Source: an uncultured Parcubacteria group bacterium (GTDB lineage: Bacteria; Patescibacteriota; Patescibacteriia; UBA9934; CAMTUG01). From it: a stretch of DNA of 64,000 bases. Shown here piece after piece: positions 7,186-63,843 of this stretch (position 1 is its first letter; each line of letters begins with the position of its first letter). The notes beneath the pieces are model-generated. The model ran no database searches. It was not told the DNA's origin and saw only the letters and a program-made list of their open reading frames with translations. The translations under genes and the position numbers were made by a program. Location of the stretch: NCBI GenBank assembly GCA_947084965.1, contig CAMTUG010000001.1, forward strand, positions 409,301-473,300. The letters are read 5' to 3'.

Positions 7186-7875
7186 ATGGAACACATTTTG
7201 CTTCCATCCAACTTTCGGTTCGAAGAGGGGGCGACCGACCGTGAGGCCACGCTGGTCATTGAGCCGTTGTATTACGGCTACGGACGCACTATCGGAAACG
7301 CGCTCCGCCGCGTGATGTTATCGTCCTTGAACGGCGCCGCTGTGACGGCTGTTAAAATCAAGGGCGTGCCGCATGAATTCACCGCCATCCCTGGCGTGAT
7401 GGAAGATGCTGTGGAAGTGATCTTGAACCTGAAAGGTCTTCGCTTGAAGATGCACACCGAAGAACCAGTGAAGTTGACCTTAAAGAAGAAAGGGAAGGGC
7501 GATGTGACTGGTGCCGATATCGAAGCGAACGCCGAAGTCGAAATCATCAACAAAGACATGAAAATCTGCACCCTTTCCGACACCGACTCGGAAGTGGAAA
7601 TGGAAATTGTCGTTGGTCGCGGTCGTGGCTATGTGCCGACCGAAGAACGTGACCCTTCTGGTGAAATCGGTTTGATCGCTGTCGACGCCATGTACTCGCC
7701 GGTCCGCAACGTTGGGATCAAGGTGGAAATGACCCGTGTCGGCGAAATCACTAACTACGACAAGTTGGTCATGCCGATCGAAACCGATGGAACGATCACT
7801 CCAGCAGAGGCGGTCAAACAATCGCTGGCCATCCTCTTGGAACACTTTAATCTGATCGATCAGAATCTTGGCTAA
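7186..7875 (+). CDS. rpoA: DNA-directed RNA polymerase alpha subunit, NTD only (229 aa)
   Basis: ...LVIEPLYYGYGRTIGNALRRVMLSSLNGAAVTAVKIKGVPHEF is the alpha N-terminal dimerisation domain. The ORF ends before any alpha-CTD. Confidence 0.85.
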   Translation: MEHILLPSNFRFEEGATDREATLVIEPLYYGYGRTIGNALRRVMLSSLNGAAVTAVKIKGVPHEFTAIPGVMEDAVEVILNLKGLRLKMHTEEPVKLTLKKKGKGDVTGADIEANAEVEIINKDMKICTLSDTDSEVEMEIVVGRGRGYVPTEERDPSGEIGLIAVDAMYSPVRNVGIKVEMTRVGEITNYDKLVMPIETDGTITPAEAVKQSLAILLEHFNLIDQNLG

Positions 7876-11538: not shown

Positions 11539-12233
11539 TCTCCGTGATTATTCCAACCTACCAGCACGCTTCAACGCTTTCGCGTTGTCTTGAAAGTGTG
11601 TTTAAGCAGACGTTTAAAGACGTGGAAGTGATTGTGGTCGATGACGGATCGACTGACGGAACAGAGGAGGTTATAAAGCCGTACCTGGATCGCATTCAGT
11701 ACATCAAACAGGCCAATCAAGGTGCACCAGCGGCGCGCAATCGAGGATTTGATGCCTCCAAGGGCGAGGAAGTGATCTTTTGCGATGCGGATATTGTCAT
11801 GCGCGCCAATATGCTTGAGGTGTTGCACAGAACGCTTACAAACAATCCTGAGACGGCCTACGCCTACTCCGCGTTCCGCTTTGGCTGGAAAGGATTCACT
11901 TCGTATCCATTTTCTGCTGAACGTCTGCGTCAGATGAATTTTATTCATACGAGTGCACTGATTCGCCGTGCTGACTTTCCACGGTTCGATCAATCATTGC
12001 GGCGCTTTCAGGACTGGGACTTATGGCTGACAATCCTCAAACAGGGGAAGGGTGGGGTACACGTACCGCTTGAGCTCTTCCGCGTGATCGATGAGCGTGG
12101 TCGGGCCGGGATCAGCCAGTGGCGGCCGTCCCTTTGGCACAGAATCCCCTGGCAGAAGTTTGGTTGGAAACCGAAGTCCGTGAAAAAATATGATGATGCG
12201 AAGCGGGTGATTGCAGAAAAGCACGGGCTCTAA
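11535..12233 (+). CDS. Glycosyltransferase family 2
   Basis: MISVIIPTYQHASTLSRCLESVFKQTFKDVEVIVVDDGSTDGTEEV... and ...IFCDADIVM give the GT2 DxD motifs. ATG at 11535 overlaps the GT4 stop (ATGA). Confidence 0.75.
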   Translation: MISVIIPTYQHASTLSRCLESVFKQTFKDVEVIVVDDGSTDGTEEVIKPYLDRIQYIKQANQGAPAARNRGFDASKGEEVIFCDADIVMRANMLEVLHRTLTNNPETAYAYSAFRFGWKGFTSYPFSAERLRQMNFIHTSALIRRADFPRFDQSLRRFQDWDLWLTILKQGKGGVHVPLELFRVIDERGRAGISQWRPSLWHRIPWQKFGWKPKSVKKYDDAKRVIAEKHGL

Positions 12234-12251
12234 AATATTTTAGAATAGCGC

Positions 12252-12280
12252 GAACCCACCAGGAGTGTACTGGTGGGTTC
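12252..12280 (-). terminator. Intrinsic terminator hairpin shared by gene A (minus) and the GT2 gene (plus)
   Basis: GAACCCACCAG-gagtgta-CTGGTGGGTTC is an 11-bp perfect stem. It is flanked by TAAAATATTTTAGAATA on the left and a U-rich run on the minus transcript. It is paralogous to the hairpin at 49543-49569. Confidence 0.5.
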
Positions 12281-12307
12281 ATCGTGTGAGGGTCGTCGGA
12301 GTGCCGA

Positions 12308-13009
12308 CTACCTCGGGGGCGGCGGGGGTGGGGGGACCGCCACGACCTTGAGCGAGGCGGTGACGACCGGGTCCTTCGGCGTGAGCGTCAGGAGGCCGGT
12401 CATCGGGTCGCCGCGCTTGGTCTTCGGCTCGTAGAGGTCGACGCCGAGCAGGGTGAAGCCGACCTCGGTTCCGACCAGCGCCGTGGGACGGACGGAGCAG
12501 ACGAGGTCCACCCGGACCTCGCTGCCGGTCGGCGCCTTCTCGGGCGTCGGCCAGCGCAGTCCCATGCCGCCGGCGGTGTTGGGGAGGTAGCCGATCGACT
12601 TGTCGTCGCGGCCGGGGTACACCACCACGTGGCACAGCTCGAGGGTCTGCTGGGCCAGGGACTCGACCGGGGGCGCACCGGGTGGGAGCTCGGCGTTGAA
12701 GGGATCGACGATCCACTTCGCCCCGGAGCCGTCGCGGACCCACACCGCCATCTTGACATGGGGCACCGTGAAGACCTCGAACTGGTCCGCGGTGATGATC
12801 CACGTCCCGACGACGACGTTCTCGGCTCCGGGCCGGGCCTCCGCCGGCTTGTTCTCCGGCTCCTCCAGCTTGTAGGTGATGGGGACGTTGTCTTCGGCCC
12901 GGTCGTGCCAGTTGTCGCGCGCCATGTGCTTGGCGTGCCACTTGTGGAACCAGGGGCCAGCTTCTGCCGTCGGGGTGACGGCGACCATCAGGACGAGAGA
13001 CAGAATCAT
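12308..13009 (-). CDS. High-GC secreted protein of unknown function with a C-terminal poly-proline tail
   Basis: 233 aa with signal peptide MILSLVLMVAVTPTAEA and no recognisable catalytic motif. It ends ...VVAVPPPPPPPR. Third codon positions are strongly G/C. A GGAGG RBS sits 7 nt upstream of the ATG. Confidence 0.55.
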   Translation of the reverse strand: MILSLVLMVAVTPTAEAGPWFHKWHAKHMARDNWHDRAEDNVPITYKLEEPENKPAEARPGAENVVVGTWIITADQFEVFTVPHVKMAVWVRDGSGAKWIVDPFNAELPPGAPPVESLAQQTLELCHVVVYPGRDDKSIGYLPNTAGGMGLRWPTPEKAPTGSEVRVDLVCSVRPTALVGTEVGFTLLGVDLYEPKTKRGDPMTGLLTLTPKDPVVTASLKVVAVPPPPPPPR

Positions 13010-13128
13010 CGGTTCCTCCGATCTGGGTGAAGGCAGGCCTAAGGGCCCTGCAAGGGACGATCACAGCGCCGCTGTCGGCGTGGAATCTATGCCCAAAAGG
13101 CGCACATTCCATGTCGACAGGACCGTAA

Positions 13129-13157
13129 AAAGTAGCAGAAATTGGCCAAATTGTCAA
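13129..13157 (-). promoter_or_regulatory. Sigma70-like promoter of island A gene (TTGACA-17-TACTTT on the minus strand)
   Basis: The minus strand reads TTGACAatttggccaatttctgcTACTTTttac, followed by a leader of about 120 nt. It is paralogous to the island B plus-strand promoter (shared TCTGCTAyTTTTAC). Confidence 0.4.
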
Positions 13158-13200
13158 TGCCCATAGCTAAATTTAGCCAAATTTGATACATTTCTGGCGT

Positions 13201-13881
13201 ATGATGCAACGATTACAGAAGATTATCGCCGAGGCAGGGGTCGCTTCACGCCGGGCGGCTGAAGAGATGATTTTGGCTGGACGCGTAAAAGTGAACGGCC
13301 GGGTCGTGCGCGAACTGGGCACCAAGGCGGATCCGGAAACGGATCAGATCAGAATCGGAAACAAGGTTCTTTCGACGGAGAAGAAGGTATACATCAAACT
13401 CAATAAGCCGGTTGGCTACATCTCATCCAACTCAGGCGAGCAAGGCCAGAATGTTTTGAAGCTTGTGAAGGTCAAGGAACGCATCTATCCTGTCGGACGC
13501 CTGGACAAAGAAAGCGAAGGCTTAATGATTCTGACCAACGACGGGGAATACGCCCTGCAGATGATGCATCCGCGTTTTGAACACGAAAAGGAGTATCTTG
13601 TTGGGATCAGCCGGGCGATGACCCCTGAGGATTTTGAACGCATCGCTTCTGGCCCGCAGATCGACGGAGAGAAGATGCGGCCAATGAAAATTCGGGCGGC
13701 GTCCGAAGACGGTCTCACCGTTAGTATGGTGTTGAAGGAAGGGAAGAAGCGACAGATTCGCCGGGTGATGCAAAAATTTGGCTATCATGTCAATTCACTC
13801 AAGCGTGTTAGGATCGGTCGAGAATTGCTTGGTAACTTGGCGCCAGGAAAATGGGAATTCTTTACCCCGGAGACGTTTTAA
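13201..13881 (+). CDS. Pseudouridine synthase, RsuA/RluB family
   Basis: An S4 domain (...GVASRRAAEEMILAGRVKVNGRVV...) is followed by ...YIKLNKPVGYISS...YPVGRLDKESEGLMILTNDGE with the catalytic Asp. ATG at 13201; the track start at 13183 is a TTG. Confidence 0.8.
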   Translation: MMQRLQKIIAEAGVASRRAAEEMILAGRVKVNGRVVRELGTKADPETDQIRIGNKVLSTEKKVYIKLNKPVGYISSNSGEQGQNVLKLVKVKERIYPVGRLDKESEGLMILTNDGEYALQMMHPRFEHEKEYLVGISRAMTPEDFERIASGPQIDGEKMRPMKIRAASEDGLTVSMVLKEGKKRQIRRVMQKFGYHVNSLKRVRIGRELLGNLAPGKWEFFTPETF

Positions 13882-41947: not shown

Positions 41948-42592
41948 ATGAGCTACAGCACCTTGTTGAGCGGAACGCACCGGCTCCTCGATGCCCTGCA
42001 GGCGCACGACCCCGCGACGCGAGAGCACAGCGAGCGAACGGGTGTCCTCGCCGCGGCCCTGGCAGCCGAGCTCAGACTCTCCCTGCGCGACCAGGCGATC
42101 CTGCGCCTCGGCGGAGCCTTGCACGATGTCGGCAAGCGCTCTGTTCCACGGGAGATCCTGACTGGCGACATGCGCTTCGTTCGCACCGATCCCCTGTTCA
42201 TCGAGCACATCATCCCCCACCCGACCGCCGGGGCGTACCTGTGCAGCCTCGAACGGATCGATGATGAAGTGATTCAAGTGATCGTCGAGCACCATGAACG
42301 ACTGGACGGTCTCGGCTACCCCTTCCGGATGAAGGCAGGTCAGATCAACTGGCGGTCGATGTTCGTCTCGATCGCCGACATGTTCGACGCCATGACCGAC
42401 ACAACCCGCATCTACCGACGGCCGAAGACCGGCGATGAAGCGATCACTGTCCTGCGGGATGCCGTCGGCAACGGCGAGATCCCCGAGCATCCCGTGCGCG
42501 CCCTTCTCGCCATTCACGAACGCGGCGAAATCGCTATCCTCCACGAACGCGCCGAGCCGCTCGAAGAGATCATTCGGTACCTCTCCACCTAA
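41948..42592 (+). CDS. HD-GYP domain protein (putative c-di-GMP phosphodiesterase), high-GC island C
   Basis: ...HSERTGVLAAALAAEL...LGGALHDVGK...HHERLDGLGYP are the HD and GYP motifs. 214 aa. GC3-rich at about 64% GC versus ~50% in neighbours. GGAGG RBS. Confidence 0.7.
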   Translation: MSYSTLLSGTHRLLDALQAHDPATREHSERTGVLAAALAAELRLSLRDQAILRLGGALHDVGKRSVPREILTGDMRFVRTDPLFIEHIIPHPTAGAYLCSLERIDDEVIQVIVEHHERLDGLGYPFRMKAGQINWRSMFVSIADMFDAMTDTTRIYRRPKTGDEAITVLRDAVGNGEIPEHPVRALLAIHERGEIAILHERAEPLEEIIRYLST

Positions 42593-49542: not shown

Positions 49543-49569
49543 AACCCACCTGAAGTGCTCAGGTGGGCT
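49543..49569 (-). terminator. Terminator hairpin of island B minus-strand gene, paralogous to 12252-12280
   Basis: AACCCACCTGA-agtgc-TCAGGTGGGCT. It has compensatory base changes relative to the island A hairpin (AG/CT versus TGA/TCA). The flanking sequence shares CGCGAA...TCGTG.G.G...GGAGTGCC..CTAC with island A. Confidence 0.5.
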
Positions 49570-49594: not shown

Positions 49595-50479
49595 CTACTT
49601 CGTCTGGGTGGTGGGGATCGGTTGCATCTCTGGGCCGGAGACGCCGCCGAACTTGGCGAAGCCGCAGCAGCCGCAGAACAGGACGAGGAGGAACCCGACG
49701 ATGATGATCAGCGGCAAGTTGCCCGCGATCGCGCCGCTGATGGTCGGCTGGGTCGGGGTGCCGGTGGCGCTCGTCGCCTTCCCTGCTTCCTCGCGACCCT
49801 TCTTGGCGGCGTCCTTCCGCTTCTTGCGCTCCTCCGCGCGTTCGTCCCGCGCGGCCTGCTGATCGGCCGTCGGGTTGGCCCAACGGTCCCGGGCCCGAGC
49901 GACGGCGGCGTCCTGGCGAGCACGCGCCGCGGCAGCTTCCGCCGCACGCGCGACCTCGGCTTCGTGGGCCGCGGCGGCCGCCTTGGCTTCGGCGGCCTTG
50001 CGATCGTCCTCGGCCTTCTTCGCGGCGGCGCCAGGGTCGACGGGCTTCACGGTCTCGGCCGGCGTCTCGGGCGCGCCAGCCTTCTTCGCGGCAAGGGCAG
50101 CGGCTGCTGCGGCTCCGGCTGCGCCAGCGGCGACCTCCTCGTCGAGGTCCGGGATGCCGTCCCCGTCTTCTTCGACGACCGCCTCCTCGGGCTCCTCCTC
50201 TTCCTCGCTCGGCTTCTCGGCCTTGACGCCGGTCAGCTTCTCGAGGATCGGGTGGACGACCTCGGCCATGGCGCCGATCACGCTGCCCAGCGTGCCGGCC
50301 TCCTTGGCGTCGAGGAGCTCGGTGAGGAGCTTCTGCGAGGGCTCGTCGAGCACGTCGGCCATTTCGTCGGCCTTGACGGCGTCCGCGGTCCAGGCGGCGC
50401 TGAGGTCCGACCACTCCTGGTCGGTGAGCTCCTCGCCATCCAGACACTTCTTCAACAGGGCCTTGATCTTCGGGTCCAT
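49595..50479 (-). CDS. High-GC tail-anchored membrane protein of unknown function (294 aa)
   Basis: ATG at 50479 (MDPKIKALLKKCLDGEELTDQEW...) with a GGAG RBS. It has an acidic linker (EEEEEPEE), an Ala-rich helix (AEAKAAAAAHEAEVARAAEAAAARARQDAAVARARD), a single C-terminal TM (LPLIIIVGFLLVLFCGCCGF) and a short tail. The track start at 50635 is upstream of the promoter. Confidence 0.55.
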   Translation of the reverse strand: MDPKIKALLKKCLDGEELTDQEWSDLSAAWTADAVKADEMADVLDEPSQKLLTELLDAKEAGTLGSVIGAMAEVVHPILEKLTGVKAEKPSEEEEEPEEAVVEEDGDGIPDLDEEVAAGAAGAAAAAALAAKKAGAPETPAETVKPVDPGAAAKKAEDDRKAAEAKAAAAAHEAEVARAAEAAAARARQDAAVARARDRWANPTADQQAARDERAEERKKRKDAAKKGREEAGKATSATGTPTQPTISGAIAGNLPLIIIVGFLLVLFCGCCGFAKFGGVSGPEMQPIPTTQTK

Positions 50480-50564: not shown

Positions 50565-50593
50565 AATATAGCATAAAAAACCGATTTTGTCAA
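50565..50593 (-). promoter_or_regulatory. Sigma70-like promoter for island B minus gene (TTGACA-17-TATATT)
   Basis: The minus strand reads TTGACAaaatcggttttttatgcTATATT; the leader of about 85 nt contains the hairpin GACGCttcagGCGTC. Confidence 0.45.
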
Positions 50594-50657: not shown

Positions 50658-50693
50658 GCAGACTTGACAAAATCAAAAAAGTCTGCTATTTTA
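50658..50693 (+). promoter_or_regulatory. Sigma70-like promoter for island B plus gene (TTGACA-16-TATTTT), with -35 inside an 8-bp inverted repeat GCAGACTT-N13-AAGTCTGC
   Basis: gGCAGACTTGACAAAATCAAAAAAGTCTGCTATTTTAcaagg; leader of about 120 nt with a GGAG RBS. Confidence 0.5.
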
Positions 50694-50812
50694 CAAGGCT
50701 GTGCAGGACCCTAAAAGAGAGGGCTGGCAGTGGTTTTCCCCGACAGCGGGGCTGATCGAGAGAGAAAGGACACAACACCCAAACGGCGGCCAACCCGCCA
50801 ACGGAGCACACC

Positions 50813-52408
50813 ATGGCGACCCTCGCCGAACAGCTCGCCGCGCAAGCGGCCAACGCCAGCAAGAAGAACGACAAGGGCAACAAGAAGGGCGGTCTCGCGG
50901 CGCAGGCCGCGGCCGGCAACAAGCCCGACGCCAAGGCGCAGCAGGAGGCCCGGGCGGCGGCGTTCGCCGACGCGCAGAACGACCTGGCCGCCGACGCGGT
51001 GATGAAGATCGGGGAGCTCGCCCAGGGCAACCGCCGCGCCCAGGCGGACCTGATCTCCCGCATCGTCCGCAACGGAGAGAAGCTCGCCATCTTCGAGGTC
51101 AGCCCCCGGCAGGAGGAGGGACGGCACGGCGAGGGCCTCAAGTGGGTCGGCGACACCACGATCGACGGCGTCGGGGAGACGGTCGGCTTCACCAGCCACA
51201 TCATCCTCTTCGACCTGGTCGCCGGGAAGAAGGTGTGGTGCTGCCTCGTGCAGGACAAGAAGCGCAAGGACAGCTACAGCGCCTTCCCCCTCGGCCTCTG
51301 CGAGGTGTCCCTCATCAACAACTGGAACGGGAACCGTTCGAAGGAGGACCCGACCATCACCGTCATCACCGGCTCGATCCGCGACGCCCACCGCAGCGTC
51401 AAGCTGACGGTCCGCGAGATCGTCGAGCTGCGTGGGCGGGGCGGGGGTCAGCACCTCGCCTGGCTCAAGGGCTTCCGCCTGGTGAAGCACGAGCGGTGCC
51501 AGCCCTTCGCGCTCAACGTCAAGTCCGTGTTCAAGATCGAGCTGGGCGAGCGCGGCGCCACCCTCCGGTTCGTCTCCACGGCCGAGGCCTTCCAGGGCTT
51601 CGATCACAAGGCGATCGCGATCGGCGGGGCCTCGAGCAAGCCGGTCGATCCGCTCGCGGCGGTCGGCAAGGTGACGATCGAGGAGGTCAACCCGGACATC
51701 GTCCACGGGCTGATCAACAAGCTGAAGGGAGAGAAGAAGACGGACGAGCACCCCACCGTGAAGGCGATGAAGGCGGCCGGGCGCAAGGTGTCGGACGACA
51801 TGGCCGGGCGCGAGGGCCCCATCAACTCGGTCCTGGAGAAGGAGGTCAAGCCGGCGCTCCTCGAGGCGCTGGACGTGGAGATCGAGAAGCGCGAGAAGCT
51901 CCTCGGCGACCTCCCCACCCTGCGCGTGTTCCTGGGGCTCACCACCTCGGACGACATGCGCAGCACCCACCGCAACATCAGCAACCGGCGCGACGCGCCG
52001 AAGGAGGGCAAGGACTCGCCCGCCGAGTTCATCGCCGAGAAGACCAAGATCCCGTTCACCTGGTCCCTCTTCGGCCGCTACTTCCGGGCCGGACTCCTCG
52101 CCAAGATCGCCCAGGCGGAGGAGAGCCACGATCTGGCCGTCAAGATCGTGGTGCTCGAGAAGGAGGTCGAGGTCAACGCCGAGGACATGCTCGGGTGGCC
52201 CGACTGGACCAAGGAAGGGATCGCCGCCCGACTCGAGGCGATCGAGAAGGGCGACGTGCGCGGGGCCGTCTGGGTGGTGAACCAGGCGCTCCGGCAGCAC
52301 AAGGTGGAGATCGACCTCGGCAAGGAGGGCCACCTCGACATCGTGAAGGCTGCGGTGAAGACCGTCGCCGACGCGGTGATCGCCAAGATCACGCCCGCCG
52401 CCAGCTAG
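50813..52408 (+). CDS. High-GC 531-aa soluble protein of unknown function
   Basis: ATG at 50813. The N-terminal ~60 aa are A/Q/K-rich low complexity (MATLAEQLAAQAANASKKNDKGNKKGGLAAQAAAGNKPDAKAQQEARAAAF...). No P-loop, HTH or catalytic motif is recognised by eye. Strong GC3 bias. Confidence 0.6.
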   Translation: MATLAEQLAAQAANASKKNDKGNKKGGLAAQAAAGNKPDAKAQQEARAAAFADAQNDLAADAVMKIGELAQGNRRAQADLISRIVRNGEKLAIFEVSPRQEEGRHGEGLKWVGDTTIDGVGETVGFTSHIILFDLVAGKKVWCCLVQDKKRKDSYSAFPLGLCEVSLINNWNGNRSKEDPTITVITGSIRDAHRSVKLTVREIVELRGRGGGQHLAWLKGFRLVKHERCQPFALNVKSVFKIELGERGATLRFVSTAEAFQGFDHKAIAIGGASSKPVDPLAAVGKVTIEEVNPDIVHGLINKLKGEKKTDEHPTVKAMKAAGRKVSDDMAGREGPINSVLEKEVKPALLEALDVEIEKREKLLGDLPTLRVFLGLTTSDDMRSTHRNISNRRDAPKEGKDSPAEFIAEKTKIPFTWSLFGRYFRAGLLAKIAQAEESHDLAVKIVVLEKEVEVNAEDMLGWPDWTKEGIAARLEAIEKGDVRGAVWVVNQALRQHKVEIDLGKEGHLDIVKAAVKTVADAVIAKITPAAS

Positions 52409-52488: not shown

Positions 52489-52517
52489 GACACCCACGGA
52501 AAACTTCCGTGGGTGTC
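52489..52517 (+). terminator. Terminator hairpin of island B plus gene
   Basis: GACACCCACGGAA-aac-TTCCGTGGGTGTC is a 13-bp stem in the ACCCAC family. A second hairpin, TAGACGGGGCgcagtgGCCCCGTCTA (52526-52551), abuts the tatD stop. Confidence 0.5.
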
Positions 52518-63690: not shown

Positions 63691-63719
63691 TTGACAAAAC
63701 AAGATTTTTATGATATCAT
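63691..63719 (+). promoter_or_regulatory. Sigma70-like promoter (TTGACA-17-TATCAT) for the small Cys-rich ORF
   Basis: TTGACAaaacaagatttttatgaTATCAT lies about 28 nt before the ATG at 63748. Confidence 0.4.
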
Positions 63720-63747
63720 GGCGCTATAAATAAGTAACGTCTCTTGT

Positions 63748-63843
63748 ATGGAAACATGCACGACGTGCGGAATGGAAATGGAGGGCGACACCTGTCCAGG
63801 ATGTGGAAAAGCGGTCGCTGAGTGTACCTGCGAACACGTTTAA
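63748..63843 (+). CDS. Small Cys-rich (zinc-ribbon-like) protein, 31 aa
   Basis: METCTTCGMEMEGDTCPGCGKAVAECTCEHV has six Cys in CxxC/CxGC spacing. It has its own promoter and is followed by a perfect intrinsic terminator. Confidence 0.4.
   Translation: METCTTCGMEMEGDTCPGCGKAVAECTCEHV

Follow-up and report, generated by a model that had tools for sequence, protein, structure and literature searches.

An orphan gene of extreme G/C-ending codon usage in an apparent lineage-specific insertion between glycosyltransferase and rluB genes of a Parcubacteria group bacterium

Phage morons are reportedly autonomous units of promoter, open reading frame (ORF) and terminator that sit between genes which are neighbors in related phages, and their base composition often deviates. 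The integron gene cassette consists of an ORF and a 3' attC hairpin and is expressed from a platform promoter. Classical ORFans are said to be AT-rich relative to their genome and to drift towards the composition of the host, and a foreign-looking composition is usually taken as a sign of recent transfer. Here, we describe ORF233, a minus-strand gene encoding an orphan protein of 233 amino acids (aa), and the predicted transcription unit to which it belongs. Both lie in a 64,000-nucleotide stretch (the window) of contig CAMTUG010000001.1 from an uncultured Parcubacteria group bacterium. The unit resembles a moron in its layout, and it departs from the classical ORFan in that its codons are overwhelmingly G/C-ending and appear to be kept so.

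ORF233, its codon usage and its site

ORF233 is a real coding gene. The initial annotation described a high-GC ORF with a strong bias at third codon positions, and both descriptions hold at the exact coordinates (12308-13009). GC content is 69.5%, with 0.68/0.47/0.94 at first, second and third codon positions (GC1/2/3), compared with a GC3 of 0.48-0.61 in the immediate neighbors and 0.45-0.68 in the ~58 other long host ORFs of the window. The identical protein is on record in two assemblies, the NCBI genome with its 476,519-bp contig and a Logan read assembly, and the gene has an ortholog of its own at the same locus in an independent run. The second member of the 90% cluster of the neighboring rluB (P0123) comes from run SRR6488953, in which a 4,092-bp contig (L121) carries this ortholog as a high-GC minus-strand gene directly upstream of rluB. 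Mismatches between the two genes amount to 0.20/0.19/0.37 at the three codon positions, and the indels are of 6 and 3 nt. The excess of third-position changes and the indels in multiples of three confirm the reading frame. The L121 ortholog runs off the end of its contig, leaving its C-terminus incomplete; the contig ends (positions 1-40) within the C-rich tract of the Pro/Thr tail, where strain heterogeneity or slippage could break the assembly graph.

The pair of orthologs permits a comparison of ORF233 with its neighbors rluB, Wzy-like and fmt (Table 1). The ORF233 protein evolves 2-4 times faster than theirs, and GC3 is 0.94 in both lineages. At conserved twofold sites, 47 of 53 are G/C-ending in both orthologs, which differs from the neighbors (Fisher p = 1.4e-4). 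Under a two-state decay fitted to the neighbors, a host-like process, even an ancestor with 100% G/C-ending codons would be predicted to retain a G/C-ending fraction of at most 0.76 at twofold sites, compared with 0.93 observed (p ~2e-6). Because exchange between C and G is saturated at fourfold sites while A/T-ending codons are still excluded, the GC3 of ORF233 does not look like a leftover of recent transfer. Rather, a gene-specific force appears to keep its codons G/C-ending, and the candidates are selection on mRNA or translation, GC-biased conversion, and alleles that evolve off the chromosome and are repeatedly imported.

Table 1. Divergence between the window and L121. Synonymous and non-synonymous rates (dS, dN) follow Nei-Gojobori, which is crude for such skewed composition; direct site counts were relied on.
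Measure	ORF233	Neighbors
aa identity	67%	83-91%
dN	0.233	0.06-0.10
dS	0.61 (crude)	1.4-1.7
dN/dS	~0.38 (crude)	0.04-0.07
Fourfold sites G/C in both	82/93	186/463
C<->G among fourfold sites G/C in both	44% (saturation 43%)	33% (saturation 50%)
Twofold sites differing	5/53	93/271

The surface-polysaccharide setting given in the initial annotation is confirmed. A flippase and the glycosyltransferase (GT) genes GT4 and GT2 (PF00535) lie upstream, and an RluB-type pseudouridine synthase (PF00849 + S4), a Wzy_C-like gene, fmt, def and priA lie downstream. That ORF233 is inserted between a glycosyltransferase gene and rluB is borne out by relatives in which this junction is intact. The nearest retrievable ones, L081 (Logan; rluB 65% identical) and L082 (JGI; 60%), match the order of the window from the ribosomal protein cluster through flippase-GT4-GT2-rluB-Wzy-fmt-def-priA. 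In these relatives the GT2 stop is 1 bp (L081) and 12 bp (L082) from the rluB start, and neither has a GC anomaly at the locus. L121, a close relative with an rluB 91% identical to that of the window, carries the insert, and an rluB-based scan of a genome-contig collection returned only relatives that are at most 50% identical. Since GT2 and rluB are 1-12 bp apart in L081 and L082, the segment 12234-13200 appears to be an insertion specific to the lineage of the window and L121. The GT2 stop lies within a perfect 16-nt palindrome, TCTAAAATATTTTAGA (12229-12244), at precisely the left edge of the insert; five palindromes of this kind are present in the window, and about one is expected per 64 kb. 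The siting of ORF233 in a polysaccharide cluster may be incidental, because two other high-GC islands described below lie elsewhere: the HD island adjoins ATP synthase genes, and island B lies between ATP synthase genes and tatD.

ORF233 appears to be an orphan restricted to a narrow lineage, its only ortholog being that of L121. A search of 5.8 billion protein clusters and a filter-free phmmer search of 1.84 billion representatives each returned only ORF233 itself. Searches of 50,697 phage and 72,556 plasmid records with tblastn were negative, and a back-translated pattern scan of JGI metagenomes for conserved ORF233 peptides found nothing. The L121 ortholog escaped the protein searches, presumably owing to its truncation at the contig end. 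No family was assigned to ORF233 by sequence searches of Pfam, NCBIfam, PADLOC and PDB, in agreement with the earlier impression that it has no recognizable fold motif, and no housekeeping homolog emerged from the database searches. A tail-fiber PHROG at E 0.07 was dismissed. No useful account of comparable GC-rich islets in Patescibacteria came from a literature search.

Non-coding parts common to islands A and B

Around ORF233, the insert (island A) carries a predicted promoter, a leader and a 3' hairpin (Table 2). The best-conserved block of the 4-kb alignment with L121 is 13070-13220, which includes the promoters and the leader's 5' half and is 0.90-0.95 identical, compared with 0.7-0.85 for coding DNA. 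Within the leader, identity to L121 is ~95% in the 5' half, and the 3' half has diverged with indels. Divergence jumps just 3' of the leader hairpin, where identity is 0.58 (13011-13069), and the coding sequence is 75% identical overall. The GC palindrome first noticed in the leader is present and is better read as a hairpin with an ACAG loop. An 8-codon upstream ORF (uORF) is also present as annotated, but it is not supported as coding. It lacks a Shine-Dalgarno sequence and reads MGCAPFGR in L121, and since its only two substitutions are both non-synonymous, its conservation is at the level of nucleotides rather than of the peptide. A perfect 12-nt operator palindrome in the promoter spacer was considered and rejected, because the palindromic part is limited to TTGGCCAA and the window has many 12-nt palindromes. 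Perfect palindromes of at least 12 nt are about twice as frequent there as expected, many of them with a CGATCG core.

The 3' hairpin is a probable terminator for ORF233 and a probable insulator against the convergent GT operon. At the other end of the insert, a promoter for rluB must be supplied, because the relatives transcribe rluB from the GT operon, with rluB translationally abutted to GT2; the AT-rich segment at 13158-13200 may be this replacement promoter. No Rfam family at the gathering threshold and no tRNA gene was found in the 64-kb window, and Rfam matches in 12150-13250 were at chance level (E > 1).

Island B carries two divergently transcribed orphan genes, encoding 294 and 531 aa. 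The suggestion that islands A and B are paralogously regulated is fair for the non-coding parts, that is, promoter, leader hairpin and 3' module; the proteins are unrelated, and no paralogy between ORF233 and the island B proteins was found at the protein level. The strict promoter TTGACA-N14-TGCTAYWTT occurs in the window only ahead of the three orphan genes. Similarly, TTGAC-N14-17-TGCTA occurs 3 times in 64 kb, every time ahead of a high-GC orphan gene. The looser pattern TTGACA-N13-15-TGNTANNNT adds one site only, ahead of a 31-aa Cys-rich peptide at 63748. This peptide, METCTTCGMEMEGDTCPGCGKAVAECTCEHV (63691-63843, plus strand), has zinc-ribbon-like CxxC pairs and is followed by a canonical U-tract terminator.

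The leader of the 531-aa gene contains the hairpin CCCCG-ACAG-CGGGG 49 nt after the -10 element, compared with 52 nt in island A, and the two hairpins differ by one compensatory pair, changed on both sides. Taken by itself, the 14-mer leader motif does not exceed chance expectation if 2 mismatches are tolerated, and it carries weight only in combination with its position and the compensatory pair. At the other end of the unit, ORF233 and the 294-aa gene are 69% identical over 87 nt, from the last ~8 codons through TAG and GGCACTCC to the hairpin (pairwise E 9e-6). The pattern CCCACCWG-N7-CWGGTGGG is found in the window only at these two 3' hairpins (12252-12280 and 49545-49567; 0.03 occurrences expected), and one stem pair shows a compensatory change between them. 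The right edge of island B has a further CCCAC-type hairpin (52491-52515), CACCCACGG-AAAACTT-CCGTGGGTG followed by TCATCGCG; its stem is shorter, and it is suggestive only. Read on the plus strand, it is oriented like the left-edge hairpins of islands A and B. Hairpins of this type may mark island borders rather than the 3' ends of genes.

Islands A and B, three units with unrelated orphan ORFs, form a small set that shares codon usage and promoter architecture, and subsets of it share the leader hairpin or the 3' module. Together with an HD-GYP-type gene (the HD island), the three orphan genes correlate at 0.85-0.91 with one another in relative synonymous codon usage and at 0.45-0.54 with the host pool. 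Lys is at least as frequent as Arg in all three orphan proteins, which is unusual for genes with ~95% GC3; the HD gene product has 1.4% Lys and 10.3% Arg. The 294-aa protein is rich in Ala, Glu and Lys, has a single C-terminal hydrophobic segment (possibly a tail anchor) and ends in PIPTTQTK. The 531-aa protein is Lys-rich and apparently cytoplasmic, with no homolog in the 5.8 billion clusters. The HD gene sits between atpC and the start of uvrD/pcrA. In a strain with an atpC at least 90% identical (L122, positions 985-1226), it is reduced to a 16-codon C-terminal remnant beside a different high-GC minus-strand gene, and thus at least one high-GC islet site turns over.

Table 2. Coordinates of the features of islands A and B and of the HD gene within the window.
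Feature	Position	Strand	Details
Whole insert (apparent lineage-specific insertion)	12234-13200	minus	967 bp; GT2 stop (12233) to rluB start (13201)
ORF233 coding sequence, 233-aa orphan	12308-13009	minus	ATG to TAG; starts MILSLVLMVAVTPTAEA, ends VAVPPPPPPPR
Predicted sigma-70-type promoter TTGACA-N14-TGCTACTTT	13129-13157	minus	-35 at 13157-13152, 14-nt spacer, extended -10 at 13137-13129; conserved in L121
5' leader, ~113 nt	13010-13122	minus	transcription start predicted from the -10 element
uORF MECAPFGH, 8 codons	13086-13112	minus	no Shine-Dalgarno sequence
Leader hairpin CGCCG-ACAG-CGGCG	13067-13080	minus	overlaps palindrome CAGCGGCGCTG
GC palindrome CAGCGGCGCTG	13074-13064	minus	in ORF233 leader
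Shine-Dalgarno GGAGGA	13014-13019	minus	4 nt before ATG; conserved in L121
3' untranslated spacer with GGCACTCC, 27 nt	12281-12307	minus	part of the 87-nt module common with the 294-aa gene
3' hairpin GAACCCACCAG-N7-CTGGTGGGTTC	12252-12280	minus	11-bp stem, 7-nt loop, weak U-tract; 19 nt past convergent GT2 stop
AT-rich segment with 12-nt palindrome GCTAAATTTAGC (13166-13177)	13158-13200	plus	conserved; candidate rluB promoter
HD-GYP-type gene	41948-42592	plus	GC3 0.80; 214 aa, Pfam HD_5 phosphohydrolase
Island B copy of 3' hairpin	49545-49567	minus	just downstream of 294-aa gene
294-aa orphan gene, island B	49595-50479	minus	GC3 0.89
Predicted promoter of 294-aa gene, TTGACA-N14-TGCTATATT	50565-50593	minus	promoter pattern
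Predicted promoter (50664-50692) and leader with hairpin (50738-50751) of 531-aa gene	50664-50812	plus	pattern and hairpin match
531-aa orphan gene, island B	50813-52408	plus	GC3 0.97

One observation elsewhere in the window concerns RNA polymerase. RpoA is only 229 aa long in the window (7186-7875, plus strand), in L081 (1098-1787) and in L082 (2835-3524), and Pfam found only the N-terminal domains RNA_pol_L and RNA_pol_A_bac in the latter two, with no match to the alpha C-terminal domain. The lineage may lack this domain, which would affect UP-element and activator-dependent promoters.

The product and the competing explanations

The only strongly hydrophobic stretch at the N-terminus of the ORF233 protein is formed by residues 1-17 (13009-12959), with a Kyte-Doolittle 11-residue mean of 2.1-3.0 over residues 1-15, and the L121 ortholog matches 15 of these 17 residues. 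The length of its h-region is within the range for a Sec (SPase I) signal peptide (about 7-15 residues). A small-x-small site (-3, -1) after a helix breaker, TPTAEA/G(A)P, is conserved in both orthologs. The product would thus be exported by Sec and cleaved after AEA17, giving a putative mature protein of 216 aa, 23.6 kDa and pI ~5.9. Both cysteines (C126 and C171) are conserved in L121, as are a His/Trp-rich predicted helix, FHKWHA(K/R)HMxRDNWHDRAED, and the blocks DPFNAxLPxGAPPVESLAQQTLELCH, GYLPNTAGGMG and VGTEVGFTLxGVxLxEPKTKRGDP. The helix places an H-x2-H-x2-H array at the predicted mature N-terminus (residues 20-35, 12904-12951), conserved in L121, which could be a metal- or pH-sensing element, or chance. 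Likewise, the RGD at residues 199-201 (12407-12415), in the block EPKTKRGDP and also conserved in L121, could be a binding motif, or chance.

The C-terminal poly-proline tail of the initial annotation is there in the window protein (residues 226-233, 12334-12311; 8 residues) but is not a defining feature, being absent from the L121 ortholog. There, the tail reads ...WSTTPPPATT..., ...KVVWSTTPPPATT and goes on, with no polyproline. This sequence and the PIPTTQTK of the 294-aa protein indicate that the ORF233 tail is a variable Pro/Thr-rich end encoded by the C-rich tract of the 3' module. In single-sequence AlphaFold2 models the protein is all-beta, and the mature part is probably mostly beta, folded as a sandwich.

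With modest confidence, we lean towards an autonomous unit that was inserted at GT2-rluB, has its G/C-ending codons maintained, and encodes an exported, fast-evolving envelope or surface protein. A self-contained transcription unit would have entered the GT2-rluB junction a single time, in the common ancestor of the lineages of the window and of L121, and would then have been kept at the locus. Its near-consensus extended -10 promoter would drive a leader of ~113 nt with the conserved 5-bp/ACAG hairpin, followed by a Shine-Dalgarno sequence and the 233-aa preprotein. The U-poor hairpin would end the transcript and shield against the convergent glycosyltransferase operon, and the AT-rich end beside rluB would give rluB a new promoter. 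After Sec export and cleavage, the product would act at the envelope or cell surface, where a partner cell, a host or a phage would exert diversifying pressure on it. The export signals, the Cys pair and the high evolutionary rate make such a role probable.

Several points weigh against this account. The function is deduced only from localization signals and evolutionary rate. Neither ortholog has a Lys or Arg before the hydrophobic core (MILSLVLMVAV / MLLSLALMVAV), and thus the charged n-region of a signal peptide is missing. The AlphaFold2 models are of low confidence, with a predicted local distance difference test score (pLDDT) of 48 and a predicted template modeling score (pTM) of 0.48 for the full length, and 57 and 0.54 for the mature part. 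A Foldseek search of PDB yielded nothing beyond generic Ig-like sandwiches, with template modeling (TM) scores of at most 0.34 and all above E 1e-3. The evolutionary statistics come from a single ortholog pair, one member of which lacks its C-terminus, and the vertical co-divergence of ORF233 with its neighbors is an assumption. Finally, the evidence for common modules consists of 2-3 copies within one 64-kb window. Viral scans for the 3' hairpin and leader motif gave unrelated low-GC terminators and chance matches only, and a JGI metagenome scan for promoter plus leader hairpin gave one false positive (a tRNA gene) and no further copies.

The alternative that survives best is repeated re-import or conversion from an unsampled high-GC pool (a plasmid, a phage or a partner) through recombination in the conserved flanking modules. 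Alleles that evolve outside the genome would explain both the retained GC3 and the high divergence. Moreover, the jump in divergence falls exactly at the leader hairpin, the 3' module is common to unrelated ORFs, gene content turns over at the fixed site of the HD island in L122, and C<->G divergence in ORF233 is at least that of the neighbors (0.44 vs 0.33). However, purifying selection on promoter and leader would give the same identity profile, and no external replicon or homolog was found in the searched collections. There is also no recombinase within ~8 kb on either side of ORF233, where all genes are syntenic housekeeping or envelope genes, and no integrase, tRNA gene, target duplication or terminal repeat was found at the insert. 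We consider this explanation unlikely, if worth keeping in view. We put equally little weight on a broader idea, that islands A and B exemplify a so far undescribed type of chromosomal cassette from a Patescibacteria-like lineage. Such a cassette would have a promoter/leader-hairpin head, an exchangeable orphan ORF with ~95% G/C-ending codons, and a foot made of the Pro/Thr tail plus hairpin. Its ends would serve ORF swapping, or a dedicated mechanism or selection (e.g., for mRNA stability or nuclease escape) would keep its GC.

Somewhat less probable again is that the gene arrived recently from a high-GC donor bacterium, for example an actinobacterial partner, and has not yet ameliorated. The sharp compositional edges and a GC3 of 0.94 in a genome of 53% GC would fit, as would the absence of the insertion from relatives and the typical high-GC proteome signature of the HD214 island gene. 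U-poor hairpin terminators are known from high-GC bacteria, and the likeness of the ORF233 hairpin also counts in favor. On the other hand, searches of ~15 billion proteins and of phage and plasmid collections revealed neither a donor nor a homolog, and the Lys-to-Arg balance of the three orphan proteins is not that of a high-GC proteome. Furthermore, the gene predates a split at a neighbor dS of ~1.4-1.7, with C/G saturated and GC3 still 0.94 in both lineages. The earlier proposal of horizontal acquisition from a high-GC taxon is, for these reasons, not demonstrable.

We give a similarly low probability to an uncleaved N-terminal membrane anchor, which would leave the protein tethered outside the cell (type II) rather than released. 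The lack of a positively charged n-region speaks for an anchor, and so does the short, highly conserved hydrophobic core (10-11 residues). That length is, however, short for a transmembrane helix, and the core is directly followed in both orthologs by the AEA site with its helix-breaking TPT. An artefact (an assembly chimera, contamination, or a spurious high-GC ORF that masks a non-coding feature or another frame) is effectively refuted: the source is a metagenome-type assembly, and long frames are open in several phases of the high-GC DNA, including a 292-aa alternative frame and an antisense frame, but these other frames gain stops in L121 and have no Pfam match, only the ORF233 frame has its peaks of GC and of substitutions at the third position, the flanking genes are intact, and the gene recurs at the same locus in an independent run.

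Why does a locus of this kind matter? Small-genome, partner-dependent bacteria are thought to rely on fast-evolving surface proteins, and to our knowledge almost no such protein of these bacteria has been characterized. The ORF233 unit offers a clean, datable case of an accessory and probably exported protein in a conserved operon, with mapped regulatory parts and an ortholog. It also challenges the assumption of amelioration, as C/G synonymous turnover is complete while A/T-ending codons are still excluded. If the responsible force is mRNA selection, biased conversion or repeated import via the conserved cassette ends, this would reveal a new side to how reduced genomes keep and renew their accessory genes.

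Comparison with known systems

Compared with integron cassettes, the islands are alike in that unrelated ORFs carry a related 3' hairpin module and a related promoter-proximal element, and in that gene content changes at a fixed site, as in the HD island. Unlike integron cassettes, the units have a promoter each and occur singly at scattered sites, with no IntI or cassette array within ~8 kb of ORF233. The hairpin is a simple one that lacks attC R and L boxes, and its flank GTTCGCG does not fit GTTRRRY. At the level of the product, the hydrophobic leader with its AXA site, the all-beta model, the Cys pair and the Pro/Thr-rich C-terminus recall Sec-exported Ig-like or beta-sandwich surface proteins of monoderms. 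In contrast to these, ORF233 has no significant sequence or structure match and no sorting signal (LPXTG or similar), and its short tail is not conserved.

With classical ORFans, ORF233 shares its short length, its fast evolution, its place between conserved genes and the lack of homologs outside a narrow lineage. The bias is the opposite one, however, since ORF233 and the island B genes are extremely GC3-rich and stay so. The likeness to phage morons goes further: the unit has its own predicted promoter and hairpin terminator, contains a single ORF of unassigned function, sits between genes that abut in relatives, and has a composition far from that of its surroundings. It differs in residing in an operon of a cellular chromosome among ribosomal, envelope and translation genes, with no PHROG match below E 0.07. 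Moreover, several units here share homologous promoter, leader and 3' modules, and their deviant composition is kept over a long divergence. Altogether, the ORF233 unit is best described as a moron-like, horizontally inserted ORFan islet that lies outside any phage and whose compositional bias does not decay.

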